Of a stretch of DNA of 64,000 nucleotides, positions 26,329 through 49,319 are shown piece after piece (the stretch's first letter is position 1; each line of letters starts with the position of its first letter). The notes under the pieces are model-generated. The model was not told the DNA's origin. It ran no database searches and worked only from the letters and a program-made list of their open reading frames with translations. Origin of the DNA: a virus; IMG/VR virus record IMGVR_UViG_3300037245_002163, positions 37,301-101,300 of that record; one strand, given 5' to 3'. Position numbers and translations under genes: made by a program.

Positions 26329-29300
26329 ATGGCGGGGAGACTACCGATCGGGGACGCGGCTTCGTTGCGTTCCATCATGGAGCGCGGGCTCCAAAAGGGT
26401 AAGGGCGGATGGCAGTCCGTGCCGAAGGGCAAGCACGGCGGGCAGCGCCGTCGCAAGGGCAATTCCTACGAGTACCGCTACCCCGATGGGCAAGGCGGAT
26501 GGCGCAGTAGCCCCGGCCGACGCCAAGCCACTTCCGGCGCCCCGAAGCAGGGCCTAAAGACCCGGCTCGCAAGGCACAAAGAGCAGAAGATCGCCGACAT
26601 GCGCCGCCGTGACAAAGAGGCGGCTGGGAAGCGTTTGGACGCGTCTATCGAAGAGAGCCGTAGGCAGAACGCCGCCCGCGGCCCGGTCACCCGCCGGTCG
26701 CTCAACTTCGACGAGTACCAACAGCGCGCCTACCGGATGACAAATCAGGGGCTTGCCGGCGCGCTCGATGACATTCGCGCCACGCTCCCAAGCGCCGATT
26801 CGATGGACCGTGAGATGAACACGGACAACGGCGGCTACTACCGTGACCAGGCGAGCGTGCTCGTCCAAGAGCAAAAGAAGCGCACTGAGAACCCAAAGCG
26901 CGAGACAGAGAGCGCCATTCTACGCACGCGGGATGAGATCGCCGTGCGCTCATGGCGCATCGAAGAGAACGCGGGCAACACTTCGCAGGCCGCGAAGACC
27001 CAGACGGGTATCGATCAGCGCGAGCTATCTAAGCTGTACGAACGCACCGCGAGCCTTGAAGCGAAGATCGCGCCGGCCAAGCAAGACCCGACCAAAAAGC
27101 TCCCGCCGCACACGAAAAACAGGTGGGATTCAGCGGACGGCAAACGCAATATCGTCGGGATGCACGCGAGCGGGAAGTACCTAGTGGCCACCGCGGGCCG
27201 TACGACGCTAGAGCTGATCGACCCCAAAGACCTCATGGACGAGCAGAACCTAGACATGCGGCAGCTAGAGAGCCGTCGCAAGATGGGCCGCGCAGTCCAG
27301 GCGGAAAAGGACCGTGCCGCCGCAGAGAAGCGGGTCGCCGAAGACACGCAAGGCTTCACGGACAAGATGACTCCCGCGCGCAAGGCCAAGGTCAACGCGA
27401 CGCTCAATAAGCAACGGCACATCAGCGGCTACGTCACGACGCTCAAAACGTACATGCAAGCCGCCGTCGCAGACGGTGCCAAGGTCACGACGCACAGATC
27501 CTTCGGGCGCATCCTGACGACCGCCACCGGGTCGTTCTTTACGCAAAAAGACCTGACGAAGACCGGGCTCGACTTCGCGGAGCATCTTAGCGCGCTACCG
27601 CCGCGCAAAGGCCAGTACGGCGAAGCGTGGCCCATGGCTAAGCCATCGCGCGCAGTCACGGCCGTGAACGTGGCTGACGCACTGAAAACAGCGTCCCACA
27701 ATCTCGTCTACCTCACGGAAAAACTGACGGGCTCCAAAGACGAGAAGTCAGTCAGTGACATTCGCTCCATGGTAGAGGCGATGCAGGACCAGGGGCGCGC
27801 GATCATCTTTCGGGATCGCGATGGCGACGAGATCGTAGATATCCCAGGCCGGCACGGGACGAGCAAGAGCCTCTACAGCGTGCCCCTACGTAGGTTCGTA
27901 GTCGGCGACCTAGAGAAAGCTGGGGGCTGGGGGAACATTCCCGCCGGTAGGCGCGGGGGCCAGCGTAAGCGCGTGGGCATGAAGTGGGTCTACCGCTATC
28001 CCGATGGCAAGGGTGGTTGGCAGAGCGGCGCGGCGCGCGAGCGAAGCGCCACCAAAAAGAAGGCCGCGGCTAAGAAGCAAGCGGCGCAGACCACGCTCGA
28101 CTTCGGCGCAGCCGGCGAGCCCGACGAGCCTACAGCCACGCCCGATATCGTGCATCTTGCGGCGGCGTTCATAAAGCCGGGCGACGTGCTGCACCCCTTC
28201 GGCGATGAACAGTACCGGATCATCGCGTCGGGTAAGAAGGGCTTCAAGATCCACCTTGCGACCATGAACGTCGCAACGGGCGAATCGCTCGCGCTCACAG
28301 TGAGCGCCACGGACAAGATGTGGGTCCAGCAAGTGGGCGAGCAACGCAAGACGGATGTGGAGACGCAGCCGCCTAAGAAGGCCCCCGCTTCCACGCCACG
28401 CGGCAAGGCGTCGCACACGACTGAATCGATGATCGAAGAGGGCGAGTACGTCAACGATCGGGAAAGCAACGTACGCCAGATCGGCGAAGACGTGTTCGGC
28501 AGTGCGCGCCACCGGGCGATGAATTGGAAGAGCCTACGTGAAGCTCTTGATTCAGAAGACGCGCCCGCCATGTTCACGCGCAAGTTCCTGCTACGCGAGA
28601 AGCCCATCGGGTTCATTGGGCGCGCTCAGGCGGCGGAAGGCGCAGACGGGGTGCTCAACCAAGCGCACTACTACTTCGCGATGAACAAGTTCCCAGCGAA
28701 GCCGCCCAAGTTTGGCTCTTCGCCGCAACGTGGTTGGTTTTTCAGGGACGTGAAGCGTGAAGGCCGGGGCACCTACGACTATCACAATAGCCCGGAGTAC
28801 AAGGCGAAAGCGGTAGAGCTAGAAGAGGCACGGAACAACCCTGAGAAGTGGGCGGAAGTCTCAAAGGAATGGCAGCGCGCCGGGCTTGAAGGCTACTACA
28901 ACGCGTACGCGACGGTTCAAGGGATCATCGAGGGGCACTCCGCGTCGGGCAACGCTCCCGAAGGCCCTCCGCAGATCCGGTATCCCAGCTACACAAAGCC
29001 GAACGCGGATTCGCCAAGGCTCGAAGACAAGCTCCGGGCGGCGTTGTGGCAAGCCAAGGCCGATGGCAAGCACCCCGTGGAGATCGAGAGCTTGCGCAAG
29101 ACGTTCAACGGCCAAGTGAGCGGCAAGACACGACCATCGAGGCAAGTCGACGATATCCGATCCCGCGCCACTAGAAAGCACGGGCCAGACGCCGATGCGA
29201 TCAATAGCGCGACCATCGAAGCGGCGATGCTGGTCATGGAAGGCAAGAGCATCAACGCGGCCTTCGGGGAAAAGAAGAGCGGCAAGGGCTACGCGGTCAA

Positions 29301-30195
29301 CCTTCGGGACATGTACGACACGGACAAGATGGAACGGAAGGGGCCGGAGAGCCGCTACGAGCACATCGAACAAGGCCGTAAGCTCATGAGCAAGGGCGGC
29401 CCGTTCAAGATGCGCGGCCTACAGCTCGGCAAGAGCGTCACGGACCAAGAGCGCGTCCACCATCTAAAGAGTCTGGTCGATAGCTTCGATGACATGGCGG
29501 AGTTGACCGGCTTGCCGGTGGGCATGATGGGCTACAACGGCAAGCTCGCGATGGCCGTGGGCGCACGTGGGGTCGCCGGGGCGCTCGCGCACTACGAGCC
29601 CACCGCGAACGCGATCAACCTGACGCGGCTAAACGGTGCGGGCTCGCTCGCGCACGAATGGGGTCACTTCTTTGATTCGAACGCGGGCGCAGCCGACCTA
29701 AATGGCGGTCGCAACCGGGAGAACAACCTCACGGGAAGCCGTGTTCCACGCGGTGCCAGCCAAGGCTTGCCGTCGCCTACGCGCGAAGCCGTGACGGCGC
29801 TCCGTGATAGCGAGGCGTTCCAAAAGTTCGATGCCCGGATCACGACGGCCATGGACAAGAATCCGCTCTACTCTCCGCCGGAGAAGCAGTATTGGCGGAG
29901 CCACGTCGAAATGTTCGCCCGGAGTTTCGAGCGGCACTTACAGCGTAAGATGGCCAAGCAGGGGCGCAGCAATACGTACCTTGTGGCGCTGCGGAAGGCG
30001 GCTAGCTCGCCTGACGGGCTTTGGCCGACCGATGAGGAAGCCGATGCGATGGCTCCGCTTTTCGAGAACATCTTTGCGAAGTTCAAAGAGTCGGGACTAC
30101 TTGAAAAGATGATGCGCCAGCTCGAAGGGGATACTCTTCGCAAAGCGGCGTTCACCGTGCCCAAAAAGCGGTTCGTTGTGGGGGATATTCGATGA
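26329..30195 (+). CDS. giant polyvalent protein B with a C-terminal LPD1-like zincin domain
   Basis: LAMAVGARG..A.AHYEP..INLT..GAGSLAHEWGH ... YW...EMFARSFE. Confidence 0.8.
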   Translation: MAGRLPIGDAASLRSIMERGLQKGKGGWQSVPKGKHGGQRRRKGNSYEYRYPDGQGGWRSSPGRRQATSGAPKQGLKTRLARHKEQKIADMRRRDKEAAGKRLDASIEESRRQNAARGPVTRRSLNFDEYQQRAYRMTNQGLAGALDDIRATLPSADSMDREMNTDNGGYYRDQASVLVQEQKKRTENPKRETESAILRTRDEIAVRSWRIEENAGNTSQAAKTQTGIDQRELSKLYERTASLEAKIAPAKQDPTKKLPPHTKNRWDSADGKRNIVGMHASGKYLVATAGRTTLELIDPKDLMDEQNLDMRQLESRRKMGRAVQAEKDRAAAEKRVAEDTQGFTDKMTPARKAKVNATLNKQRHISGYVTTLKTYMQAAVADGAKVTTHRSFGRILTTATGSFFTQKDLTKTGLDFAEHLSALPPRKGQYGEAWPMAKPSRAVTAVNVADALKTASHNLVYLTEKLTGSKDEKSVSDIRSMVEAMQDQGRAIIFRDRDGDEIVDIPGRHGTSKSLYSVPLRRFVVGDLEKAGGWGNIPAGRRGGQRKRVGMKWVYRYPDGKGGWQSGAARERSATKKKAAAKKQAAQTTLDFGAAGEPDEPTATPDIVHLAAAFIKPGDVLHPFGDEQYRIIASGKKGFKIHLATMNVATGESLALTVSATDKMWVQQVGEQRKTDVETQPPKKAPASTPRGKASHTTESMIEEGEYVNDRESNVRQIGEDVFGSARHRAMNWKSLREALDSEDAPAMFTRKFLLREKPIGFIGRAQAAEGADGVLNQAHYYFAMNKFPAKPPKFGSSPQRGWFFRDVKREGRGTYDYHNSPEYKAKAVELEEARNNPEKWAEVSKEWQRAGLEGYYNAYATVQGIIEGHSASGNAPEGPPQIRYPSYTKPNADSPRLEDKLRAALWQAKADGKHPVEIESLRKTFNGQVSGKTRPSRQVDDIRSRATRKHGPDADAINSATIEAAMLVMEGKSINAAFGEKKSGKGYAVNLRDMYDTDKMERKGPESRYEHIEQGRKLMSKGGPFKMRGLQLGKSVTDQERVHHLKSLVDSFDDMAELTGLPVGMMGYNGKLAMAVGARGVAGALAHYEPTANAINLTRLNGAGSLAHEWGHFFDSNAGAADLNGGRNRENNLTGSRVPRGASQGLPSPTREAVTALRDSEAFQKFDARITTAMDKNPLYSPPEKQYWRSHVEMFARSFERHLQRKMAKQGRSNTYLVALRKAASSPDGLWPTDEEADAMAPLFENIFAKFKESGLLEKMMRQLEGDTLRKAAFTVPKKRFVVGDIR

Positions 30196-33100
30196 GAGAT
30201 GCAATCGATGGCCTAGTGAAGCTCGTCAAGGGCGCAGCGGCGGGCAGTGGCGGCGGCTGGGGCAATATCCCCAAGGGCACTAGGGGTGGGCAGCGCAAGC
30301 GCGTCGGCGGCAAGTATCAATACCGCTACCCTGACGGCAAGGGCGGTTGGCAGAGTAGCCCTAGCAAGGGCGGCAAGGGCGGCAGGCGCAAAGCCAAAGC
30401 CAAAGCCAAGAGCAAGGCCGGCAAGTGGACTTCCCCGGAGCAAGCTCGCGAGCGTGGCGCAGCGGCGCACGCGGAAGGCATCAGCGCACCCGCCCAAGAC
30501 AAAGCGTACATGGATAGCGTGCCTTGGGGCGCCGTGGGCGACTCCATACCCTATGCCGACGCGTGGTCGAAGGGCTGGCACGCGGCCAACACCAAAGCGA
30601 ACGATGCGAGCCCCGAAGGCCGGGCACTCGCCGCCGACATGGCGCGCACAAAGTTGGAACAGCACGCGTGGTATGCAGAGCATTCCGACTTTCGAAGCAC
30701 GGTCAAAGGCGTTCGGCACATCATGGTGCTCGATGCGGCAACTGGCGGAACCATGCTCACCCCGCTCACTGAGGCCACGGATTTCGAGCTAGCCAAGCTC
30801 CTCGCTAAGAACCAGAACGACGCCGCGGATGCTATCGATCCGCTGAATCCTTCCGAGGGCGAGAAGGCGCGCATCATAGACGCCGCCGACAAGCTATGGG
30901 ATAGCGAGCGCGCCTATGACGGCTCCGTACAGTGGCCCGTGAAGTACGCGGCCTACCGGGAGCTTGCGCGGGGCATTGAAGTCGCCGACAAGCGGTTCGG
31001 CCCCAAGCACCACGTCGTGCCCCCCTCGCTTCGGGACCGGGTAGCGGAGATGCGCAACGTGTTCGCAGAGCGTGAATCAGAGGCGCGTAAGCGATACGCG
31101 AACGATCACAAGCGGATGGCGCGCAATGGGTCCGTGCATATCGACTCTTTCCGAGGCGCGAATATCATTAGCCCCAGCAAGGCCATGATCGACCTGGCTG
31201 ATCAGCTTGGGAAGCAGGGGGCGTATGGCAACGTCCACGAAAAGCTCACGGCGATGGCTGAGCAGTACACCAACTACTTAGATTCGTGGAGCGCCGATCA
31301 GCATAAGTCAGCATCCAATGTGCTTTCGCACTACGCCCATGAGCACCGCGCCGACGACGCCGTGCGCCAAGCGGCGATCGTGCTCGCGCGGGCTCACGAT
31401 GCAAAGGGCAACGCGAAAGCGAAGAGCCAGAAGCCCGGCCCGGCGGCTACGAACAAAGAAATTGCCGCGGCGATGCGCTTGAACAAGGTCGAGGCGCTTT
31501 CGACGGGCGAGACAAAGGCCATGCGCGCGCAGCTCAAACGGAACGCAAAGAACGGCGTAGCCGGCGGCAACGCGGGTCGTGTCAAAGCGGGCCAGCGCGT
31601 CGCATTGGATGGCAAGGGCTGGAAAGTCGCAGACTTCGATGCGGACGCTGCGGCGCCCGAAGGCTCGACCCTTGTGCTCTTAGCCGACGATGGCCGGAGC
31701 ATGATGAGCGGCGTGCGGCTCGATAACCCGGCGTTGCGCTACGGCAAGCATCAACCGGGCGATCCCAAAGACGATCTTTCTGGCGTTTTCGATGAGGGCA
31801 AGGGCAAGGGCCGTTGGCCGAAGGGCACCAAGGTCAAGAGCCCCGAAGAGCGCGGCCGAGACCGTGCGAAGGGCCGTCGCTCCGATGCGGACCTTGCGGA
31901 GAACAAGAGGCGCAACGTCAGAACGCGCGCGGAGAGCGGCTACCGCAGTTCGACCGATGCGGAGCTGGCAGAGACCGTGCGCCGGAACAAAGAGAAGAGC
32001 GGCGGTATGAAGGGCGCAGATCCGCTCGAAGTGTGGCGGAAAAAGAAGGCCGAAATGGACGCTAAGAAGAGTGCCGACGCGATCGAAGGGCTCGAAGTGT
32101 TGCTCAAAGGTGTGCAGCGCGGCGGCAAATACTACAAGCGCGTCCCCAAGAGCGGCGGCAAAAAGGGCTACGACTACTACTACACCAAAGAGAAGTACGA
32201 CGCGCGCCCCGGAGCCACGAAAGACACCGATCCGAACGCGCGCGCCAAGACGCAAAAGATCGTCGACCTCTTTCACGACCACCACTTGAACCAGTGGAAC
32301 GCGAACGCCGCGGAAAAGCTCAAAGCGTTCACGGACGTACCCAAAGAGGATATCGAAACGGCGGTAAGCTGGGCCAAAGAGCACGGCGACGCGAAGATCC
32401 AGCGGGCGATGGAAAGCGCCAAGAATGCGCACTTCGATGCGATCCATTTGAAGCCGCATGCTGACAAGCGCCGCGAAGAGGCCAAGGCCAAGCACGCCGC
32501 GATCGACATTTCCCCGGACACCTACAACTCAAAGAAGTTCCGGGTGAAGGGCATGAGCGGAGAAGCCTCATTCAGCCAAGCTAAGGACAAGAGCGCGGGC
32601 GCGCGCATCGTCAACTTGCTCTTCCCTGAGCACACCGCGTCGGATCACTACGGCGCGTCGCACAAGCACCGCGATGCCATGCGTGACAACATGACCGAAC
32701 ACCGCAAGCTCATCGCGGACGCGCAGAACAAAGCCTACGGTAAGAAGCTGGGTATCGGGGAAGGCCCGAACATTTCAGGCGGCACCGACCCGAAGTTCGG
32801 GAAGGAAACCAACGACAAGATCCGGGTCGCGGTGAAGGCTTTGCAGTTCCACCAGGACGCCGCTGACGCCCATGAGCACGCCGCACGGTACACCCGGAAA
32901 GCAAAGAAGAGCGGCGACGCTATCGATGGGCTCGAATCGCTGAGCAAGGGCGGCGGCTGGCACAGCGCACCGGGCTCCAAGAAAGGCCGGCAGCGCACGC
33001 GTGGTGCCGGGGGTAAGTGGATCTACCGGGATGCTCCGGGTGCGGGCGGTGGCAAGGTCAAGCGCGGCAGCGATGCCCGCAGTGTCTTGGGTGGCGGTTG

Positions 33101-34436
33101 GGCGGTCGGCGTTATCGAGGGGCTTCCCAAGGATCTCAAAGACTTCACCGAGGCCGTCGAAGCCGGCAACGATGAGATCAGCATCGATGGCATCGGTAGG
33201 GCGATCAAAAACAAGCTCGATATCGCGGACGTTCGATCTTCGCAGATTGTCGCGCACTCGATGCGCGAAGACATACCGGACGGGCTTCTTTCGATGCGGA
33301 CTGCGCCGACGCAAATGAAGCAGCGGATTGCGAGCGAGAAGAGCAAGATGGCGGAACGAGACCGCCTACGGACGCAGGTGCGGAAGTTCGCACTAGCCGC
33401 GCTCGACAAGATCGACCGCTCGAAAGAAGTCAGCTTCCAAAAAGAGTCAGACAAGGGCTACGGCGAGAAGCGCGACCAAGATCGGCGGGCGCGTTTCAGG
33501 GATAACCGGGAAGACCATAGCAAGAGCGGCGACGCTATCGAGGGCTTGGAAGGGCTCAGCAAAGCCCGGTACTACGATATGGACTACGGGTCGGGTAAGA
33601 TGACCGCCAAGAAAGAGAGCGCATCCATGGGGAAGAGCAAGGGCGATATCATCCAAGAGCTGATTGCCAAGATGAAGTCTGGGGATATTACCAAAGAGTT
33701 GATCGGCAAAATGAAGGCTGCGGGCCTTGCTGACGACGTGGTTCAACAGCTCATCGGCCGATGCAATACGCGCAAGAGCCACTTCGAACCCTCACTCAAA
33801 AAGGGGCTCTATGCTTTCGAGCTGGGTGGATCGGAGAGCAAGAGCCGCAAGCTCCCTGACAATCTCTTGCCTCAGTACCTTGGGGCCTTTGTGGAGCAAG
33901 CCTACGAGCATGAGAAGCAAGAGTGTGAGCACCAAAAGGTCAAGCCCGTGAGCTACGACGATCAGATCAACTTCTTTGCCATGCGCGTCATGAATGAGCT
34001 GGTCGTTTACATGCGGAACAACCCCGATCTCATGGCAGCCGGCAAGGATGCGACGGCCGTCAGCATCGCCGCGATCCTCCGTAACTCCGGGCTCGTGCAG
34101 CCCGACGTGAGCGGCTTTACGAACAACGAAGGCAACGGATACATGGGCGAAGTGGCCCACTACTCAAAGAAGGCCCCTTGGATTCAGGAAGATCCCACAG
34201 CTCGCCCGATGGCGCAGCTCGCCGATCGCCATGAGCAAGGGTCGTTCACGGACGACACCGCAGACCCGGCCATTGCGCTCCGCAAGGCTCAGGTCGAAGA
34301 GACCCGGCGCGCATTTACCGCCCCAGAACCGAAGTTCATGGTAAAGGGGGATGGCGACTGCCCGGTACACGGCTACCACGATCTCACCAAGATGCAGACT
34401 CTTCTGATCCCGCCCGGACATTGCACGTGTAACTAA
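30192..34436 (+). CDS. giant modular basic protein C, putative internal head protein
   Basis: 1414 aa; four DAI[D/E]GLxxLxK[G/A] linkers; stop overlaps the portal start. Confidence 0.75.
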   Translation: MRDAIDGLVKLVKGAAAGSGGGWGNIPKGTRGGQRKRVGGKYQYRYPDGKGGWQSSPSKGGKGGRRKAKAKAKSKAGKWTSPEQARERGAAAHAEGISAPAQDKAYMDSVPWGAVGDSIPYADAWSKGWHAANTKANDASPEGRALAADMARTKLEQHAWYAEHSDFRSTVKGVRHIMVLDAATGGTMLTPLTEATDFELAKLLAKNQNDAADAIDPLNPSEGEKARIIDAADKLWDSERAYDGSVQWPVKYAAYRELARGIEVADKRFGPKHHVVPPSLRDRVAEMRNVFAERESEARKRYANDHKRMARNGSVHIDSFRGANIISPSKAMIDLADQLGKQGAYGNVHEKLTAMAEQYTNYLDSWSADQHKSASNVLSHYAHEHRADDAVRQAAIVLARAHDAKGNAKAKSQKPGPAATNKEIAAAMRLNKVEALSTGETKAMRAQLKRNAKNGVAGGNAGRVKAGQRVALDGKGWKVADFDADAAAPEGSTLVLLADDGRSMMSGVRLDNPALRYGKHQPGDPKDDLSGVFDEGKGKGRWPKGTKVKSPEERGRDRAKGRRSDADLAENKRRNVRTRAESGYRSSTDAELAETVRRNKEKSGGMKGADPLEVWRKKKAEMDAKKSADAIEGLEVLLKGVQRGGKYYKRVPKSGGKKGYDYYYTKEKYDARPGATKDTDPNARAKTQKIVDLFHDHHLNQWNANAAEKLKAFTDVPKEDIETAVSWAKEHGDAKIQRAMESAKNAHFDAIHLKPHADKRREEAKAKHAAIDISPDTYNSKKFRVKGMSGEASFSQAKDKSAGARIVNLLFPEHTASDHYGASHKHRDAMRDNMTEHRKLIADAQNKAYGKKLGIGEGPNISGGTDPKFGKETNDKIRVAVKALQFHQDAADAHEHAARYTRKAKKSGDAIDGLESLSKGGGWHSAPGSKKGRQRTRGAGGKWIYRDAPGAGGGKVKRGSDARSVLGGGWAVGVIEGLPKDLKDFTEAVEAGNDEISIDGIGRAIKNKLDIADVRSSQIVAHSMREDIPDGLLSMRTAPTQMKQRIASEKSKMAERDRLRTQVRKFALAALDKIDRSKEVSFQKESDKGYGEKRDQDRRARFRDNREDHSKSGDAIEGLEGLSKARYYDMDYGSGKMTAKKESASMGKSKGDIIQELIAKMKSGDITKELIGKMKAAGLADDVVQQLIGRCNTRKSHFEPSLKKGLYAFELGGSESKSRKLPDNLLPQYLGAFVEQAYEHEKQECEHQKVKPVSYDDQINFFAMRVMNELVVYMRNNPDLMAAGKDATAVSIAAILRNSGLVQPDVSGFTNNEGNGYMGEVAHYSKKAPWIQEDPTARPMAQLADRHEQGSFTDDTADPAIALRKAQVEETRRAFTAPEPKFMVKGDGDCPVHGYHDLTKMQTLLIPPGHCTCN

Positions 34437-36232
34437 TGGGGCTCCTAGACGATATCCGAACGGCGGGGACGGGTGCTCTTGACGGCGCGATGCAGTCATT
34501 GCGCAAGGCCGACGATCTAGGCGACGACGTGCCGTTCGATGAGATGCAAGACGCGCTCATGAAGGGCGGGCTCGCTGAGCCCACGGAAGAGAAGCCCCGT
34601 GGTCTCTTTCATGATCCCTACAGCGTCATGGATTGGGGCGGCTGGCGTCAGCGTCCCAGCATTCTCACGTACGATACGCTCCGCCAAATGAGCATATCGA
34701 ACACCGTGATCGCGGCCATCATTCAGACCCGCGTGAATCAGCTCAGCCAGTTCGCCGTGCCGCAGCAAGGCGACTACGACCGGGGCTACCGCATTATCCT
34801 TCGGGACCGTCGCGACAAAACCAAGGTCATGACGAAGGCTCAGCAAACCAAGGCGACTGAGCTGGAGCGCATGATCGAAACCACCGGGTACATGCTCCCC
34901 GATGAGAAGTCGTACGACCGCGATAGCTTTCGCGCGTTCCTAAAGAAGATCGTGCGGGATTGCCTCACCTACGATCAAATCTGTATCGAGAAGATCCGCG
35001 ACCGCAAAGGCCGGATCAGTCGCTTCATCGCACTGCCCACGGAGACCATTCGTCCCGCTGTTGCGGACGTGGAGCACATGGACCCCGAAGAGCGCCGCAA
35101 CCGCGTTGCGTATGTTCAGGTGTACGAAGATTCAGTTATAGCCGAATTCGGACCCGATGACCTTGCGTGGAGTGTCATGAACCCACGTTCGGATCTGCGC
35201 GTGAATGGCTTCGGGTTCGCTCCCATCGAACAGCTCATTCGCATGATCACAAGCTGGCTCTATGGCTTCGAATACAATACCAAGTTCTTTTCGCAGGGCT
35301 CCGCAATCAAGGGCGTGATCAACGTCAAGGGCGCCATTCCCGATCGCCAGCTCCGCGCGTTCCGACGCATGTGGTACTCGATGGTCACGGGCGTCCAGAA
35401 CAGTTGGAAGACGCCCATCTTGAACGCCGAAGACTTGCAATGGGTCTCGCTCCATTCGACGAACCGCGAAATGGAGTTTGGCCAGTGGCTCGACTTCCTA
35501 ACCAAGAGCATTTGTTCGGTCTACGGGATCGACCCCCTGGAGATCGGGTTCATTTACGGCTCCGGTGGTGGCGGCTCGTCGCTCTTCGAATCCCGGCCGA
35601 ACCAAGCCGAAGTGCAAGAGTCGAAGGACAAGGGGCTCCGCCCGCTCATCGAGCACATCGAAGACACGATCAACCAGCACATCGTATGGGAGCTGGAGCC
35701 CGACTTTGAATTCGAGTTCACCGGCTTCGATGCCAAGGCCGAAGACAAAGAGCGTGAGGCTCGGATGCTTGAAGTTACCAAGGTCAAGACGGTCGACGAG
35801 ATCCGGGCCGAGATGGATCAAGATCCGCTGCCCGATGGGCTTGGGGAGATCATTCTCGACCCGACGTTCCTGCAATGGGTCCAGGGCAAGCAAGGCATGG
35901 ACGAGGAAGGCGGCGAGGGCGGCTTCGGCGAGGAAGGCGACGGCGACGAAGACGGCGACTCCGGCGACCTTCCCGACTGGTTCGGCGGTGGCAAAGACAA
36001 AGACAAGGGCGACGACAAGGAAAAGCAGGAAGGCCCCCCAGGCGCCAAGAGCGGCGACAAGGGCTCGGCTCCGGGGAAAGACCTACCTTCGGGGGTCAAG
36101 GGCGGTAAGGCGTCCCAGAAGGAAGCCCTAGCGGCCTCTGAGTCGGCCATCCGTACCGTCGAAGTGTTGCGGAAGAGCCAAAGGGTGCAGAATGATCGCC
36201 AGATCATCGATGTAGAGATCGTGGGGGAATGA
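34436..36232 (+). CDS. portal protein
   Basis: AIIQTRVNQ, RDCLTYDQ..EK, NPRSD..G.G..P.E, FFSQG, ICSVYGIDP.EIG, SKDKGLRPL; SPO1/Twort-type. Confidence 0.92.
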   Translation: MGLLDDIRTAGTGALDGAMQSLRKADDLGDDVPFDEMQDALMKGGLAEPTEEKPRGLFHDPYSVMDWGGWRQRPSILTYDTLRQMSISNTVIAAIIQTRVNQLSQFAVPQQGDYDRGYRIILRDRRDKTKVMTKAQQTKATELERMIETTGYMLPDEKSYDRDSFRAFLKKIVRDCLTYDQICIEKIRDRKGRISRFIALPTETIRPAVADVEHMDPEERRNRVAYVQVYEDSVIAEFGPDDLAWSVMNPRSDLRVNGFGFAPIEQLIRMITSWLYGFEYNTKFFSQGSAIKGVINVKGAIPDRQLRAFRRMWYSMVTGVQNSWKTPILNAEDLQWVSLHSTNREMEFGQWLDFLTKSICSVYGIDPLEIGFIYGSGGGGSSLFESRPNQAEVQESKDKGLRPLIEHIEDTINQHIVWELEPDFEFEFTGFDAKAEDKEREARMLEVTKVKTVDEIRAEMDQDPLPDGLGEIILDPTFLQWVQGKQGMDEEGGEGGFGEEGDGDEDGDSGDLPDWFGGGKDKDKGDDKEKQEGPPGAKSGDKGSAPGKDLPSGVKGGKASQKEALAASESAIRTVEVLRKSQRVQNDRQIIDVEIVGE

Positions 36233-40797: not shown

Positions 40798-42207
40798 ATG
40801 AGTGTAGGATCATTTGTTTCGGCGCGTGACTACCGCGATTACGGCGGTTGGGGCACATCATCGCCCGACGAGCTAGCTGAGCTGCGCAAGGCCCTTACGG
40901 CCGGCAGTGACGTGAACGACCCAGGCGTTGCGCCCGGTGTCGGTTTTCCGTTGAGGACGGAAAGTCTCGAATCACAACTCAAAAACCTGACGTTTGAAAT
41001 GTCAGAGATCAAGTTGTTCCGCAGCATTTCCAAGGTGAGTGCGCAGAATACAGTTGAAGAATTCAACCGTTTGGTAAGCTATTCTCGTTCGGGCAGCCGG
41101 CGCTTCAACATGGGTTGGATGAGCGAGGGAGCACTTCCCGAGGAAGAGGACAGCACGTACGAACGTGTGACCGTCCTCACGAAATTTTTGGGAGTTGTGG
41201 GGAGGGTCACACATGTGGCCAACACCATTCGGGCCGCTCACGGTAACGTGATCGCGCTCGAAACCATGAACAAGACGATGGATCTGTTGAAGAATCTGGA
41301 GAACAGCCTGTTCTTCGGCAACTCTTCGCTCATCCCCGAACAGCTCGATGGTCTCGAAAAGCTGATCACGGATGCGGCCCCGGATAACGTGGTCGACCTT
41401 CGTGGCGCTGCGCTCACTGAGGGCGCGATGAACGACATGCTGTTGCAGATTCGTCAAAACTACGGGATGGCGACCGACGCCTACTTTAGTGCCGGCGCAT
41501 TTGGCGACCTCGCAAAGCAGGTCTACGAGCGTCAACGATTCGCCATTGCACCGGCACCCGGTGTGCTTGGCGCTTCCGTCACGGCTTTCCAGGGCCAGCA
41601 CGGCAAGATCAACTTGCACGACCACGTGTTCTTTGAAGACTCCCAGACGCCGCTTACAAACGGCTTGGGCGACGCTTCGAAGCGCCCGCTCACTCCGACC
41701 ATTACCGTTGCTCCGGCAGCGGCCGGTACGGGCAGCCAGTTCGTCGCGGCTGACATTGGTGTGTACATCTACCAAGTCATGGCGGGCAACCGCTACGGCG
41801 TCAGCTCTCCGGTCACCACGGCTGGGGTCACGGTTGCGGTAGGCGAGAACGTCACCTTCACGGTGGCAGACGGCGGGCAGGGCACGACCTTCTACGAGCT
41901 GTACCGTTCCACGGTCGGCGGCGCAGCGGACACCGCTCAGCTCATGACACGCGTCGCGCGCACTGGCGCAACGCAGGTCATCACGGACAGCAACGGCGAC
42001 ATTCCGGGGACCACTAAGGGCTTCGTTTTGCAACAGAATCAGCGGTCAATGTCATGGGCTCAGCTCTTGCCAATGACCCGGATTCCCCTCGCAACCATTG
42101 ATACTTCGATCAGGTGGGCACAGGTAGTCTATGGTGCGATAAAGCTCTACACGCCCGCACGTAACATCGTGGTCAAGAACATCGGCCGCGAACCGGGTAG
42201 CCTCTAA
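40798..42207 (+). CDS. major capsid protein
   Basis: ELRKALTAG..G.PLRTESLE; A511/K/SPO1-type organisation; ends YGAIKLYTP..IVVKNI. Confidence 0.92.
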   Translation: MSVGSFVSARDYRDYGGWGTSSPDELAELRKALTAGSDVNDPGVAPGVGFPLRTESLESQLKNLTFEMSEIKLFRSISKVSAQNTVEEFNRLVSYSRSGSRRFNMGWMSEGALPEEEDSTYERVTVLTKFLGVVGRVTHVANTIRAAHGNVIALETMNKTMDLLKNLENSLFFGNSSLIPEQLDGLEKLITDAAPDNVVDLRGAALTEGAMNDMLLQIRQNYGMATDAYFSAGAFGDLAKQVYERQRFAIAPAPGVLGASVTAFQGQHGKINLHDHVFFEDSQTPLTNGLGDASKRPLTPTITVAPAAAGTGSQFVAADIGVYIYQVMAGNRYGVSSPVTTAGVTVAVGENVTFTVADGGQGTTFYELYRSTVGGAADTAQLMTRVARTGATQVITDSNGDIPGTTKGFVLQQNQRSMSWAQLLPMTRIPLATIDTSIRWAQVVYGAIKLYTPARNIVVKNIGREPGSL

Positions 42208-43971: not shown

Positions 43972-45057
43972 ATGGCTCAGGTAAATCCACTAGACCCGGC
44001 AGAGAACAGCGGCATTGACACACGTGCGTCGGGCAACGTCATTCGAGTCACGACCAATGACCCGAACGTGGCCATCGCCATCAAAGCGGGCATGGAACGG
44101 CTCGTAGTCGAGCGGAGCACGGACCAGGGCCTCACGTACCAAGAGATCACGCACGCCTCAGAGCGGCCCGTGCTTGAAGCCGAACAGTTCGTCTACGAGT
44201 TTTTCGACCGCTGCGGCAGCCCGTCCTACCTGTACCGCACGCGCTACGCGGGCACGATCAAGGGCGAGAAGATGTGCACGGAAGCGAGCCCCCCGATCCT
44301 TGGGGCGGGCTTGGCCGTGCGCAATATCCTCACGGTCGACGACTTGAAGTCGCGCTACATGTTCGGGCTCGACCTTACGAACGACAAAGGCGTGCCGCTC
44401 GAAGACGCCGTGTACCTGAGCTACATCATGGCCGCGATTCGCGGCTTCGAGAAGCAAGTCGATATCCCGCTGTTGCCGTCGACCTTCGTAGAGAAGCACG
44501 ACTACTACCGGCACGACTATCACTCGTTCAACTTCATTCACCTGGATAACACCCCGGTGATCAGCGTTGACGAGTTTCGCGTTCAATATCCTTCGGGGCA
44601 GAACGTGATCATCTTTCCCGGCGAATGGATTCGCTTGAACAAGCTCGAAGGGCACGTACAGATCGTCCCGACCAGCGGCACGCTCAGCGAGATCCTTGTC
44701 GGCCAAGGCGGCTCGTTCTTACCGGCGATCTACAACGGGCTCGACTATCTCCCGCATCTCTTCGAAGTGAGCTACACGGCCGGCTTCGAAGACGGGCAGA
44801 TCCCAGCCGATATCGTGAACGTGATCGGCATGATGGCGAGCATCGGCCCCTTCCATATTTTTGGTGATCTCATCGCGGGGGCTGGCATCGCGAATATCAG
44901 TCTGAGCATGGACGGGCTGAGCCAGTCCATCGGCACTACCAGCTCGGCAACCAACTCCGGTTACGGCGCGCGAGTCGGCAACTATCTGAAAGAGATCAAG
45001 GCCGCGATCCCGCTGTACAAGCAATACTACCGCGGTCTCAAAATGACTTGGGCATAG
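43972..45057 (+). CDS. head completion/adaptor (neck) protein
   Basis: RYMFG.DL, E.HDYY, VSYTAG, GAGIA..SLSMDGLSQSIGTT.SA..GYGAR; SPO1/Twort-type gene after the capsid. Confidence 0.75.
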   Translation: MAQVNPLDPAENSGIDTRASGNVIRVTTNDPNVAIAIKAGMERLVVERSTDQGLTYQEITHASERPVLEAEQFVYEFFDRCGSPSYLYRTRYAGTIKGEKMCTEASPPILGAGLAVRNILTVDDLKSRYMFGLDLTNDKGVPLEDAVYLSYIMAAIRGFEKQVDIPLLPSTFVEKHDYYRHDYHSFNFIHLDNTPVISVDEFRVQYPSGQNVIIFPGEWIRLNKLEGHVQIVPTSGTLSEILVGQGGSFLPAIYNGLDYLPHLFEVSYTAGFEDGQIPADIVNVIGMMASIGPFHIFGDLIAGAGIANISLSMDGLSQSIGTTSSATNSGYGARVGNYLKEIKAAIPLYKQYYRGLKMTWA

Positions 45058-45081: not shown

Positions 45082-45435
45082 ATGCCCACCCCCCATTCCC
45101 CCGATCCGCAGTTCACGCTGCGCTTCCCCGTCCTAGAGTCTCGTGCCGACCAGATCGAACGGGATGCGCACGCCTTTTTGAAACGGAACCCCGACTTCTG
45201 GGATGAGTTTTGCCGCCGTGCGTTTCTCATTCGCAAGCGCGGGCACAAGCACTATTCCGCGATGGTCGTGGTGCAGAACATTCGTTGGCATACCGACCTT
45301 GGCGACTGCAAAGACTTCAAGATCAATAACAACTACACGCCTATTTTCGCGCGCGTGTTCAACAGCTCATACCCGGAGCTGAACGACTTTTTCAAGACTC
45401 GGGAGCAAACGAGCAGACGATCGGTGGCGCGATGA
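45082..45435 (+). CDS. conserved-type phage hypothetical protein
   Basis: NP..W..F..A..G..HYSA..IRWH..FKINNNY..AR..FF.TR. Confidence 0.7.
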   Translation: MPTPHSPDPQFTLRFPVLESRADQIERDAHAFLKRNPDFWDEFCRRAFLIRKRGHKHYSAMVVVQNIRWHTDLGDCKDFKINNNYTPIFARVFNSSYPELNDFFKTREQTSRRSVAR

Positions 45436-46688
45436 GCGTCGCCCCCGGCACCCTGATCACCACGTCGAAGGGGCTCATGCCCGTCGAAGCCCTCACCACG
45501 GCCCCGTTCAAGGTCTGGACGGGCCAGCAATACGAGGAAGCCATGGCCTACTCCGCGGGGGTCGAGCCTGTTGCCCGCGTGAAGCTCGCTAACGGGCTCT
45601 CTGCGCTTGTAAGCCCATTGCAGGCTCTAGCGGTCGTTCCCTCAGAGAGCGCCCTAGGAGCCGCCTTGTGGCGCGAGCAACGGGCACTCAAAGCGGGCGA
45701 CCGCGTGCTCATGGGCTACCAGCGCGAAGACACCTTGCTCGATACCGACTTGCTGGGATGCGGCTACCGGGACCGGGCGATGCTCGAAGATCCCGGCATT
45801 TGGCACCTACTCGGCTACGCCCTTGGCAGCGGCTACTTCCCCGGAGCCCCGCCTAGCACGGAGTCATTCAGCGTTTTCGCCTACAACCGGCTGGACGAGC
45901 CCTTGCTAGAAGACTTCGCGGCGACGTGCGACGCCCACTTCATTCCCGCACTGGCGACCGAAGGCGACCACGCCATGCTTTCGATCCATGACCGGGACTT
46001 CCATCGATGGCTGCGCGATCTGGGGTTTCAGTCGGCCGCGGAAGGCCAGTCGATCCCGAACCGCTTCTTTCGGGCGCCGGCTTGGATTCGTGGCGCGCTT
46101 CTGAGGGGGCTCTTCGCCAGCGCATCGAAGTGGGATGAGACCTACAACGCGCCCGTGCTCTACCTTCATGACTCCCGGCTCCGGCAGTCCGCGCTCCGAT
46201 GCCTATGGTCCATCGGCGTGGCGGCGCATGAGAAGCAGAGCGATACCGTCGACCATAAGATCCGCGTTTCCGATGTAGCGGCGTGGCAGGACCACGTAGG
46301 GGAGCTACAAGAGGGCGAGCCCCGCGAAGCCAAGCGAGCACCCGGCTATGAGAACCGCTGGGACGTGCTTCCGGTGTCGACGGCGCAGACGGTTATCCGC
46401 GCCATGATGGCGAGCCCCGTTTGGAAGACGCTGACGGGTGACGAGCGCGAGAAGATCGCACGGCTGGAGCGCCGTGGCCTAGCCATCCGGCGCCCCCTAG
46501 CAATCGAGTATCTACGCAAGGTCCATGCGGAAGTGCCCGCGGCGCTCCACTACCACCACGCCAAAGTGGGCATGGTGGACGTGGAACCCATTCACCGGGC
46601 GCTCATGTATCGCGTGGAAGTGGCGAATGAGGCGGCCCTGTTTCTCGCCAATCACATCGCGATGGGCGACTCACGCGCGGTGCTGTAG
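45432..46688 (+). CDS. free-standing intein-like Hint + LAGLIDADG protein, catalytically degenerate
   Basis: Block A SVAPGTLITTSKGLMPVEAL; LKAGDRV; LLGYALGSG and LLRGLFASAS; block F/G MYRVEV..FLANHIAMGDS. Confidence 0.8.
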   Translation: MSVAPGTLITTSKGLMPVEALTTAPFKVWTGQQYEEAMAYSAGVEPVARVKLANGLSALVSPLQALAVVPSESALGAALWREQRALKAGDRVLMGYQREDTLLDTDLLGCGYRDRAMLEDPGIWHLLGYALGSGYFPGAPPSTESFSVFAYNRLDEPLLEDFAATCDAHFIPALATEGDHAMLSIHDRDFHRWLRDLGFQSAAEGQSIPNRFFRAPAWIRGALLRGLFASASKWDETYNAPVLYLHDSRLRQSALRCLWSIGVAAHEKQSDTVDHKIRVSDVAAWQDHVGELQEGEPREAKRAPGYENRWDVLPVSTAQTVIRAMMASPVWKTLTGDEREKIARLERRGLAIRRPLAIEYLRKVHAEVPAALHYHHAKVGMVDVEPIHRALMYRVEVANEAALFLANHIAMGDSRAVL

Positions 46689-47003
46689 CTCTTGGATCAT
46701 TAGGAGCTGGTCGACGACCATGTTCCGAAGCTGTTGATTCTCAGCTTCAAGATGATTCGTCTTCGCGTACTGGACGAGCTTATTGCTCCGGGTACGCGTC
46801 TTGCGCCGTGCCTTCGGCTTGGAAGTCGGAGGGGCTGCGGTTTCGATCTGCGCCTTCCACTTGTAGATCAACGCGGAGCTGAGCTTGTGCTTCGCAGCGA
46901 CCGCCATCGCGCTTGTGCGGTTCGCTTCGGCTACGTACCGTTGCTTCTGCGCGGGGGTAAACTTGCGCCGTACGACGCGTTTGGTGCTTGCCTTTTTGGG
47001 CAT
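46671..47003 (-). CDS. IS3-family OrfA-like HTH + leucine-zipper protein, orphan
   Basis: RRKFTPAQK..V...VAAKHKLSSALIYKWK ... LEAENQQLRNMV. Confidence 0.65.
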   Translation of the reverse strand: MPKKASTKRVVRRKFTPAQKQRYVAEANRTSAMAVAAKHKLSSALIYKWKAQIETAAPPTSKPKARRKTRTRSNKLVQYAKTNHLEAENQQLRNMVVDQLLMIQELQHRA

Positions 47004-47075
47004 ACTAGGGACTCTCTTTCGTTGTAGGATACGACGCATCATAGTCGACGCGCCGTATTCGATTGTCAAGCCGAC

Positions 47076-47324
47076 CTAGTTCAAGGTCGGATCAGGCTCG
47101 CCGCCATCCTCCGCGTCTTCTTCTTTGGCGGCGTAGTAGTTGATCACGTTATCTAGGCCGGTGTCGGCCTCAAAGCGGCTCAAAGCCTTGTCGCGAAAGA
47201 TGCCCGTGATCTCGCCTTCCGCATCGATTACCACCACGTCTTGCTCGAAGCGAGGCTCGTCAGCGACGGGCACCGCGGGGCTTCGGCGCCAGTAGATGGT
47301 GAAGGTTCGGAGTTCGATCCGCAT
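47076..47324 (-). CDS. hypothetical protein
   Basis: TAATG coupling with the upstream gene. Confidence 0.55.
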   Translation of the reverse strand: MRIELRTFTIYWRRSPAVPVADEPRFEQDVVVIDAEGEITGIFRDKALSRFEADTGLDNVINYYAAKEEDAEDGGEPDPTLN

Positions 47325-47785
47325 TACTGCCCCGCGCCCGCGCACACGGGGCCTAGGCCGCGCTCGATGCTCGCCGGGACCGTGAGCTTGCGCCCGCAGC
47401 GACCGCAGCGACCTTCATGCCAAAACTCCGCGGGGGCGAAGTCAGTGTCGGCAGCCAAGCGGCTCCAAAGCCACGTGAAGGCTCGCGCGCTGGGGGCGTC
47501 CGTGCCGACTCGGCTCTTGCGTCCGTGAACAAATTTTTCCGCGTCGAAGATCGTTCCGAGAAACGAGTAGTCCGCATCGTTGTCGGGTCCGCTCAGCAAG
47601 CCGACAAAGAACAGCTCTTTGGGCTCCGCTTCCGTACCCACATCCTTGCGCTTCACCTTGAACGTGTAGCGGTTGCCCGTGTCGGGATTCAGCACGGTGA
47701 ACGTGGCGTTGCCGGCGAGCGCGTAGGCTTTCGCGAAAAGCGGGGTGTGGAGCTGGCCTCTTAGTTCGTTTGGAATGGTGGTCAT
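47324..47785 (-). CDS. DUF6011-type Zn-finger protein
   Basis: EGRCGRCGRKLTVPASIERGLGPVCA. Confidence 0.85.
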   Translation of the reverse strand: MTTIPNELRGQLHTPLFAKAYALAGNATFTVLNPDTGNRYTFKVKRKDVGTEAEPKELFFVGLLSGPDNDADYSFLGTIFDAEKFVHGRKSRVGTDAPSARAFTWLWSRLAADTDFAPAEFWHEGRCGRCGRKLTVPASIERGLGPVCAGAGQ

Positions 47786-47836
47786 GGTCTTCGTTCCCTT
47801 CATCTAAAGAGTACGGTGCGTCGGCTAGCGTGTCAA
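47783..47836 (-). promoter_or_regulatory. promoter/5'UTR cassette, copy 4
   Basis: TTGACA-17-TACTCT then TGAAGGGAACGAAGACCATG. Confidence 0.75.
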
Positions 47837-47893
47837 ATCGACCGTATACGCTGCCTTTTTGCGGTCGTATACGATCCATGCTATACTAGGGGG

Positions 47894-48433
47894 ATGAAAC
47901 GGATGACGCGATCGAAGCAATATGCGCGCCTTGTCGCGCGGCTTCCCGGTATCGTGTTCGCGGAGTACGGGCGAAAGGACGTGTGCATTCCCGCCGCGTA
48001 CCACGCGCTAGAAACGCTGCGCGCATGGGGCATTTCGGGGCGGCTGGTGAGCATGAACACCACCGCGATGAATTGGCCTTTCGTCGAATGGGTTAGCCGG
48101 CGCGCGGACGGGCACTACGACCCGATGCCCAACTACGGATGGTCGGTAGGTATCAGGCACGACAATCCAGATCGGGACGGCTACCTGAGCCACCTTGTTT
48201 GTGTTTCGAAGGGCAAGGTGCTCGACTGCGCAGCCGGAGCACTGTCACGCCCTGAGCGCGGGATGCCAGTCCCCGAAGGGCTCATGGTGGTGAACGGCGA
48301 ATGGTACGATGACACGACGGTGGTCACGTACATGCCGTCGCCAGAGCCCGTCCCGCCGATGTGGGTACTCGACCCGGTAGCCACGGAGTGCGTGCGAAGA
48401 CGGATCAAAAAAGAGATCCTAGAGGGGAGCTGA
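47894..48433 (+). CDS. hypothetical protein, possible papain/transglutaminase-like fold
   Basis: Extended -10 TGCTATACT 6 nt before the ATG; CIPAA..HLVC..VLD. Confidence 0.55.
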   Translation: MKRMTRSKQYARLVARLPGIVFAEYGRKDVCIPAAYHALETLRAWGISGRLVSMNTTAMNWPFVEWVSRRADGHYDPMPNYGWSVGIRHDNPDRDGYLSHLVCVSKGKVLDCAAGALSRPERGMPVPEGLMVVNGEWYDDTTVVTYMPSPEPVPPMWVLDPVATECVRRRIKKEILEGS

Positions 48434-48467: not shown

Positions 48468-49319
48468 ATGGCCGACCCTTCGAAGCTCGCTCCCCCAGCG
48501 CCCGTCGATCACGCCGATCGGGTGGTCGACGTGCCGCCTACCGTGGGCGAGTACGACACGTCCGAAGACTACCCGGCCAAGCAAAAGACGCGGGCCGACT
48601 TCCGCCCCCAAGAGTTCGAACGGGTCATTGGGCAGCACGGCAAATTCGTGGTGTGGCGCAAAGCCCTGCTTTGCCCGTGTGAGAACCGGGACACGGGGCA
48701 GCCCCAAGTCGACTGCGAAGACTGCGATGGCTCCGGCTACATCTACGTGGACGGGCACCGCATCCGGGCGCACATGGTGAGCTTCGACAAGACCACCAAA
48801 ATCTACGAAAAGTTCGGGATGTGGCTTGAAGGCAACGTCCAGATCACCGTGCTCCCGCAGTACCGGCTCGGCTTCCGTGACTCCATTGAAATGGAAGACT
48901 CGCTCATGAGCTTCAATGAGCTGTTGCGGAAGGGCAACCGGCGCGGCCGGCGGAGCAAGCTCCCCGATGGGGTCGACTCCGCGCGCTACCGGGTCACAAG
49001 CGTCACCCGGCTGGCAGTGCATACCGGAGACTCGTTCACCTTGCTCGAATCGGGCTATCATTTCGAAGTGACCGATGAGGGGTGGATCAAGTGGCTCGCG
49101 CAAGGCAGCAACGCCGTGAGCGACGGGACGACCTACAGCGTGCTCTACGACTTCCACCCCGTTTTCCAGATCATTAGCCACCCGCACTCGACTCGCGACG
49201 ACGTGCGGGGCACCAAACAGCCCAAAGACACCGTGACGGCGCTCCCGATTCAGGCAGCCGCGCGGCTCGACTACCTCATCGATATCAACTCGGCTGCGGT
49301 GCCGCCGGTCACGGGATAA
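48468..49319 (+). CDS. head closure/neck protein with a Zn motif
   Basis: WRKALLCPC..C..CDGSG.IY; SPO1/Twort-type. Confidence 0.7.
   Translation: MADPSKLAPPAPVDHADRVVDVPPTVGEYDTSEDYPAKQKTRADFRPQEFERVIGQHGKFVVWRKALLCPCENRDTGQPQVDCEDCDGSGYIYVDGHRIRAHMVSFDKTTKIYEKFGMWLEGNVQITVLPQYRLGFRDSIEMEDSLMSFNELLRKGNRRGRRSKLPDGVDSARYRVTSVTRLAVHTGDSFTLLESGYHFEVTDEGWIKWLAQGSNAVSDGTTYSVLYDFHPVFQIISHPHSTRDDVRGTKQPKDTVTALPIQAAARLDYLIDINSAAVPPVTG

Follow-up and report, generated by a model that had tools for sequence, protein, structure and literature searches.

Domesticated inteins are textbook rarities, and the known examples, yeast HO and its WHO relatives, are active nucleases. Here we describe a free-standing, intein-derived gene in a 64,000-nucleotide (nt) stretch of DNA (hereafter, the window) that covers positions 37,301 to 101,300 of IMG/VR virus record IMGVR_UViG_3300037245_002163, a 101.3-kb sequence from an uncultured phage with 61% G+C that is rated complete by CheckV. 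HO and WHO are extein-less intein derivatives, active as endonucleases and equipped with a C-terminal zinc finger (Coughlan et al. 2020, PMC7282813). A second relevant system is WhiA (DUF199), in which the LAGLIDADG saddle may no longer bind DNA and the LAGLIDADG part may instead work by contacting proteins (Taylor & Stoddard 2012, PMC3384342). Inteins inserted in portal proteins, finally, have been reported in actinobacteriophages (bioRxiv 10.1101/2025.01.02.630785).

The 418-amino-acid (aa) product of the gene, which we call the window protein, resembles each of these systems in part. Like HO and WHO, it is intein-derived, extein-less, non-splicing and encoded by a free-standing gene; unlike these active eukaryotic proteins, it is a phage protein whose nuclease residues are lost and whose motif G is degenerate, and it has no zinc-finger domain, because it ends five residues after block G. 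With WhiA it shares a LAGLIDADG fold that is devoid of acidic and basic catalytic residues, a partly acidic saddle and retention as a non-nuclease. WhiA lacks a Hint domain, and a helix-turn-helix (HTH) is fused to its C-terminal end, whereas the window protein keeps Hint and an HTH is found only in the neighbouring gene; Pfam gave no WhiA or HTH match within the 418 residues. Class 1, LAGLIDADG-containing phage portal inteins (P0010, P0017 and P0009 in our data set) have the same fold, length and block order, but the window protein is extein-less, has replaced splicing and nuclease residues and a shortened hairpin, and occupies a gene of its own. The solved inteins TliVMA (7qss), PI-PfuI (1dq3) and PI-SceI (1vde) are similar to it along the whole chain (Foldseek E 2.5e-15 to 1e-07, template modelling (TM) scores 0.5-0.65) at an identity of only 10-16%; they splice and cut, and the window protein has the residues for neither. 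Judged by these comparisons, it is a member of neither HO/WHO nor WhiA and is likened to known homing-endonuclease domestications. A non-exhaustive literature search turned up no phage or bacterial intein described as both stand-alone and doubly dead.

We consider it very probable that the window protein is a functional, non-splicing, non-cutting domesticated intein. The best overall explanation, which we hold with middling confidence, is that it is an exapted portal intein kept as a non-catalytic phage binding protein.

Intein fold and catalytic positions

The gene and the parts of its product are organized as follows.

45432..46688, + strand: free-standing intein-derived gene, 418 aa, consisting of Met, the intein fold and the tail SRAVL (open reading frame (ORF), homology, AlphaFold2, Foldseek)
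45435..45731, + strand: N-terminal Hint part, residues 2-100, with block A S-V-A-P-G-T-L-I and block B S-P-L-Q (alignment)
45789..46286, + strand: double LAGLIDADG domain, residues 120-285, with Ser133, Ala231 and Gln206 and a shortened beta-hairpin (alignment, I-DmoI-type fold matches)
46368..46550, + strand: three-helix insert domain, residues 313-373, with an R-R-P motif (AlphaFold2 secondary structure, alignment)
46551..46685, + strand: C-terminal Hint part, residues 374-413, and the tail S-R-A-V-L (alignment)

The window protein matches no family in Pfam (E <= 1), PHROGs, NCBIfam or PDB sequences, where a single row was at chance level (E 0.31). Because Pfam gives no match even at E <= 1, intein surveys that combine Pfam models with embedded context miss such derivatives. 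An exhaustive phmmer search over 1.84 billion representatives returned 99 matches, and the best long ones align the whole query inside proteins of ~1000 to 2100 aa. The matched segments are inserts of ~430 aa within phage portal proteins of about 1000 aa, with whole-length E values of 1e-52 to 1e-76 (for example, residues 286-712 of the 1014 in P0010). In Pfam, the host proteins show a Phage_portal match broken at profile position ~155, together with Intein_splicing and LAGLIDADG_3. A MAFFT alignment of the window protein, 14 embedded portal inteins and the free-standing members described below pairs window protein residues 2-413 with the embedded inteins. The embedded inserts begin with Cys (14 of 14) and end in His-Asn followed by Ser or Thr, except for P0010, which reads Ala-Asn-Thr.

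An AlphaFold2 model, built on 35 sequences, has a mean predicted local distance difference test score (pLDDT) of 91.2 and a predicted TM score (pTM) of 0.92. Its whole-length Foldseek matches are solved inteins that contain a homing endonuclease, led by TliVMA (7qss, E = 2.5e-15) and followed by PI-PfuI, PI-TkoII and PI-SceI; the middle part of the model matches I-DmoI, and the best matches in a viral structure library are inserts within long proteins. The Hint fold, with blocks A, B, F and G in order, is recognizable from the alignment to the 14 embedded inteins, the model and Foldseek, and the LAGLIDADG fold from the Foldseek matches to I-DmoI and to intein endonuclease domains and from the secondary structure. 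Homology, the AlphaFold2 model and the Foldseek matches therefore identify a complete Hint and LAGLIDADG intein fold with essentially nothing around it. An earlier sequence-only reading of the window had described the ORF as essentially one intein, and the phmmer (to 1e-76) and Foldseek (2.5e-15) matches, both far beyond chance, bear this out.

The frame at 45432..46688 on the + strand is intact over its 418 codons. It is closed upstream by a TAA at 45327-45329, no ATG, GTG or TTG lies between this stop and 45432, and the open frame including the stretch before the ATG amounts to 452 aa. At its ATG, the gene shares 4 nt (ATGA) with the end of the upstream ORF (45082..45435), whose stop codon is TGA. 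The same reading had listed the intact 418-codon frame, the in-frame stop at 45327 and the ATGA coupling, all of which are seen in our ORF analysis. Only Met precedes the intein-like region and five residues (SRAVL) trail it, leaving no extein on either side. The same start, M-x-x-x-PGT, and the same end of the gene were found again in independent metagenome assemblies, which excludes an assembly error. Within the helical insert, the R-R-P motif has a counterpart, S-R-P-R, in the embedded inteins.

The alignment allows the positions required for splicing and cleavage to be compared directly.

Intein residue 1: Cys in embedded inteins; Ser2 in the window protein, Ala or Pro in other free-standing members
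Block B: S-P-E-His in embedded inteins; S-P-L-Gln in the window protein
First LAGLIDADG motif: G-Asp-G in embedded inteins; G-Ser-G (Ser133) in the window protein
Block D: Lys in embedded inteins; Gln206 in the window protein
Second LAGLIDADG motif: S-A-Asp-G in embedded inteins; A-S-Ala-S (Ala231) in the window protein
Block F: Asp and His in embedded inteins; Arg and Ala in the window protein
C-terminal end: His-Asn then Ser/Thr in embedded inteins; Gly-Asp then S-R-A-V-L-stop in the window protein

The 14 embedded inteins are intact at nearly all of these catalytic positions, unlike the free-standing clade. In the window protein, six catalytic positions are exchanged. The splicing set is incomplete: Ser is present at position 1 and at +1, and the block B, block F and terminal residues are replaced. 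The acidic LAGLIDADG residues and the active-site Lys are likewise missing, with Ser133, Ala231 and Gln206 standing for Asp, Asp and Lys. Without the embedded inteins to compare, the sequence-only reading had started block A at residue 2, read block B as SPLQ, seen nothing but SRAVL after a terminal GD, and found both LAGLIDADG helices without their catalytic Asp. Each of these assignments holds in the alignment, where Cys1 falls opposite Ser2, so that the N-extein would be Met alone, and where the embedded inteins read S-P-E-H in block B, H-N then S/T at the end, and GDG and SADG in place of GSG and ASAS. To this list the comparison adds the exchange of Lys for Gln in block D, that of Asp and His for Arg and Ala in block F, and a deletion in the hairpin. 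In the distant free-standing proteins P0007, P0011 and P0022, the HN of the last strand is lost altogether; the first LAGLIDADG Asp is still kept in P0007 and P0011. The window protein clearly lacks what defines a functional intein and what defines a LAGLIDADG nuclease, yet descends from both.

Free-standing relatives, descent and selection

The window protein belongs to a family of free-standing proteins, with close homologues of 417-424 aa (59-94% identity) and three distant ones of 423-425 aa (32-40% identity). All of them start M-x-x-x-P/F-G/D/S-T, and the close clade ends G-D-S-R-x-V-L in all members but P0006. In a maximum-likelihood tree of 82 inteins, the nine free-standing proteins form one clade with a Shimodaira-Hasegawa-like approximate likelihood ratio test (SH-aLRT) support of 100. 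A careful 31-row tree recovers the clade at 100/100 and groups it with the portal inteins P0010, P0017, P0009 and P0012 at 89/93; a tree from the Hint columns alone agrees on this placement. The stem branch of the clade measures 0.56 substitutions per site, and identity between free-standing and portal inteins is 32-41% over the whole length. The sequence-only reading had called for a comparison of free-standing homologues, and these nine proteins, a single clade nested in portal inteins, supply them. A scan of metagenome contigs added only L008 and L009, a scan of genome contigs added nothing, viral scans with P0007 and P0011 as queries gave no match, and cultured phage records hold no match to the intein-like gene.

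The host genes of the nearest inteins point to the same phage lineage. The window's own portal protein shares 70% identity over 484 aa with the spliced exteins of P0010 and 55-71% with those of P0017. The earlier suggestion to look for the nearest active inteins and their host genes thus leads to portal inteins, in portals 55-71% identical to that of the window.

34436..36232, + strand: the phage's own portal gene, intein-less (PF04860, 87 bits, continuous match)

Portal inteins occupy two sites that are four codons apart, YN|[ST]K/R.F and F|SQGS, and both are empty in the window portal, at nt 35278/35279 (YN|TKFF) and 35290/35291 (F|SQGS). The intein-like gene sits 9 kb from the portal gene, and no other intein-like sequence was found in the whole 101-kb phage genome. 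In the simplest scenario, a portal intein of this phage lineage escaped once to become a gene of its own and then diverged for a long time. A full-size intein, with Hint and LAGLIDADG domains, would once have resided in the portal gene of the lineage, would have turned into a separate gene while losing its splicing and DNA-cleavage chemistry, and would since have been retained as an ordinary phage protein.

The portal genes of this group carry inteins in further arrangements. Two or more inteins are found in some portal homologues of 1600-2100 aa (P0008, P0009, P0012 and P0017); P0017 combines a mini-intein at portal residue ~183 with a full-size intein at an F|SQGS-type site. In contigs L010 (9686-10102) and L014, from phages with portals about 65% identical to that of the window, a mini-intein occupies a third portal site (residue ~356) and is 57% identical to the tail-fibre mini-intein described below. 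The portal genes of the group therefore have at least three intein sites.

The free-standing gene is maintained by selection. Among orthologues with unsaturated synonymous divergence, pairwise Nei-Gojobori estimates of the ratio of nonsynonymous to synonymous substitution rates (dN/dS) are 0.16-0.26, with bootstrap 95% upper bounds of 0.24-0.34 (four pairs). These values are like those of several neighbouring genes and indicate weaker constraint than on the capsid gene (0.06-0.17). The double LAGLIDADG domain has the lowest dN/dS (0.00-0.31; 0.05-0.13 for the second LAGLIDADG half), compared with 0.15-0.45 for the N-terminal Hint part and 0.17-0.47 for the helical insert in the same pairs. Members of the clade show strong conservation of the N-terminal Hint part, and their reading frames stay intact even though identity falls to 32%. 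Purifying selection acts on the whole fold, and the gene is therefore no neutral relic. The view that the gene is domesticated rather than decaying, already favoured by the sequence-only reading, is upheld by the homologues, the single clade, the synteny described below and the purifying selection (dN/dS 0.16-0.26). None of the three findings that it had named as grounds for dropping this view (a lack of homologues, neutral evolution, an assembly error hiding an extein) was made.

The result is a clade, conserved in phages, that keeps the whole intein fold, has lost both activities and has an ancestor traceable to portal inteins of the same lineage. It also offers an expressible protein with which to ask how a dead intein is reused, whether for DNA recognition, homing-site shielding or regulation.

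Candidate function

We propose that the window protein is a non-catalytic binding protein on the preserved LAGLIDADG/Hint scaffold, probably made late, with the structural genes. Sequence-specific DNA binding is a serious candidate for its mode of action, although we stop short of calling it the probable one; the sequence-only reading had likewise put forward a DNA-binding protein or a homing blocker. Retained DNA recognition is favoured by the LAGLIDADG core being the most constrained part, by several conserved His, Lys and Arg residues on the predicted strands of the clade alignment, and by the R-R-P motif shared with the embedded inteins.

Our best single guess at a target would be DNA, namely the empty intein homing site or sites of the phage's own portal gene. 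The protein would then be an anti-homing immunity factor, a nuclease-dead paralogue of portal inteins that recognizes and occupies portal homing sites late in infection, so that co-infecting, intein-bearing relatives could neither cleave the intein-less allele nor replace it, and markers linked to it, by gene conversion. The gene ends a late structural operon, so that its expression would coincide with that of an endonuclease brought in within an incoming portal gene. The idea of a homing-site shield fits the portal ancestry, the two empty sites in the phage's own portal and the late-operon position; as a specific role it is nevertheless a long way from probable. Such a shield, if real, would represent a novel type of defence in which a selfish element supplies the means to keep selfish elements out.

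Several observations weigh against the preferred explanation or are neutral towards it. All free-standing members share a deletion of ~10 residues in the basic beta-hairpin of the first LAGLIDADG half, and the net charge of the predicted DNA-saddle strands is -6 in the window protein (range -6 to +2 in the free-standing clade versus -3 to +6 in embedded inteins). A shortened hairpin and an acidic saddle, as in WhiA, argue for caution about DNA binding. As for the proposed target, synonymous conservation at the portal site is not raised in gene-carrying phages (58th percentile). The Ser residues kept at intein position 1 and at +1 make some residual N- or C-terminal chemistry conceivable from the sequence. 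The protein also diverges faster than its structural neighbours (63% versus 87-92% identity), and one family member, P0006 (408 aa), diverges completely from about residue 335, which would fit a frameshifted allele or an assembly error.

Genomic context and rival explanations

The gene lies in a structural module, near genes for a prohead protease-like protein and an SU10/SPO1-type major capsid protein (40798..42207); cultured phages are only distantly related, with capsid identity of 32% or less. Its immediate surroundings comprise the following features.

43972..45057, + strand: tail-fibre-like gene directly upstream (phrog_772)
45082..45435, + strand: upstream gene, 117 aa, phrog_13625 (function unknown), ATGA-coupled to the intein-like gene and absent from contigs L001-L005
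46671..47069, - strand: convergent HTH_Tnp_1 (IS3 OrfA-like) gene, 132 aa (Pfam 34.3 bits), with an 18-nt 3' overlap with the intein-like gene
45082..48433, no strand assigned: accessory island between two conserved structural genes, absent from contigs L047 and L048

Six IMG/VR contigs, L001-L006, show synteny with the window: a tail-fibre-like gene lies upstream of the intein-like gene, and downstream the convergent HTH_Tnp_1 gene is followed by a small ORF, a DUF6011 gene and more structural genes. In L047 and L048, where the capsid is about 70% identical, the tail-fibre-like gene adjoins the orthologue of 48468..49319. Because these flanking structural genes are adjacent there, we regard the block 45082..48433 as an accessory island in the structural module. 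Besides the intein-like gene, the island holds a leftward trio (DUF6011, an 89-aa ORF and HTH_Tnp_1) and a 205-aa ORF with no family match. A link to the DUF6011 neighbour was ruled out, as DUF6011 homologues were found at 45 other viral loci, none of them near an intein-like gene. For the distant subclade, L009 (which carries a P0011-like protein) is the only context recovered, so that context is known for only two deep subclades; there, too, the neighbour is a convergent HTH_Tnp_1 gene (32.2 bits, 4-nt 3' overlap).

The most substantial rival is a two-gene module formed with this convergent HTH_Tnp_1 protein. In such a 'split WhiA-like' arrangement, the dead LAGLIDADG/Hint protein would serve as scaffold or co-regulator, the HTH protein would bind DNA, and the pair would regulate the accessory island or late genes. 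A convergent pair with overlapping 3' ends is present in L001-L006, in the window (overlap of 18 nt) and in the 35%-identical relative L009 (4 nt). The acidic saddle and the shortened hairpin also recall WhiA, in which the LAGLIDADG part may no longer serve DNA binding (PMC3384342). However, the context comes from those two deep subclades only, the HTH proteins of the window and L009 are weakly alike (E = 8e-7 over 54 aa), and adjacency in one accessory island may merely reflect shared history; we regard such a module as unlikely. Less probable again is a virion-assembly or portal-associated factor, in which the Hint scaffold would bind the portal or another structural protein in trans. Descent from a portal insert, a position in the structural block directly after a tail-fibre-like or adaptor-like gene and the strong conservation of the N-terminal Hint part would all suit this role. 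Against it, the whole island is dispensable in L047 and L048, and neither Pfam nor PHROGs gives a match to a structural-protein family. Nor do we know of any intein that binds its mature host protein.

Two further explanations keep the gene within the life cycle of a selfish element, and both seem very improbable. A homing endonuclease gene past its invasion cycle, slowly decaying and with no present function, would account for the loss of all catalytic residues, for an island that is missing in some relatives, for faster evolution than the neighbouring genes and for the apparent frameshift in P0006. It is difficult to reconcile with dN/dS of 0.16-0.26 (upper bounds <=0.34), with frames that stay intact down to 32% identity and with gene ends conserved as far as the five-residue tail. 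The gene could conversely encode a still-mobile WHO-like or 'collaborative homing' endonuclease with a non-canonical active site, which would cut the tail-fibre-like or portal gene and drive itself or the nearby mini-intein, which has no homing endonuclease; this we rate lowest of all. The gene lies ~130 nt downstream of a polymorphic mini-intein site, in a layout that resembles WHO beside FBA1 (PMC7282813). But neither the two acidic LAGLIDADG residues nor the block D Lys are retained, no nearby residue stands in for them, and the carrier phages have empty target sites, which would then be self-cut. A WHO-like footprint is also missing, as the island contains no duplicated portal or tail-fibre-like fragment and only chance-level matches of 10-15 nt. 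An exapted portal intein, kept as a non-catalytic binding protein, remains the explanation that we prefer.

The mini-intein site itself, ATN|SGYG, lies in the tail-fibre-like gene and is empty in the window (nt 44955/44956). It is filled in about three contigs (L002:9454-9876; L001, L042) by a 140-aa mini-intein with Cys1, S-P-D-H and a terminal HN|S, located 33 codons before the stop and scoring below the cut-off of Pfam Intein_splicing. This mini-intein is polymorphic despite having no endonuclease of its own, and is missing from the window, L003 and L005. An origin of the intein-like gene from this neighbour was ruled out, as the mini-inteins form a separate lineage in the tree.

The HTH_Tnp_1 protein of the window has an HTH followed by a leucine-rich C-terminal helix, as in IS3 OrfA, with no transposase catalytic gene nearby; its counterpart in L009 is 214 aa long and has two HTH repeats. 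At the start of L009 (positions 1-130), a different, open-ended N-terminal stretch replaces block A, and may be a recombinant, a chimeric contig end or extra upstream sequence. Finally, the region directly upstream of the portal gene, at window positions 20542-34436, contains three very large ORFs of 1928, 1288 and 1414 aa.

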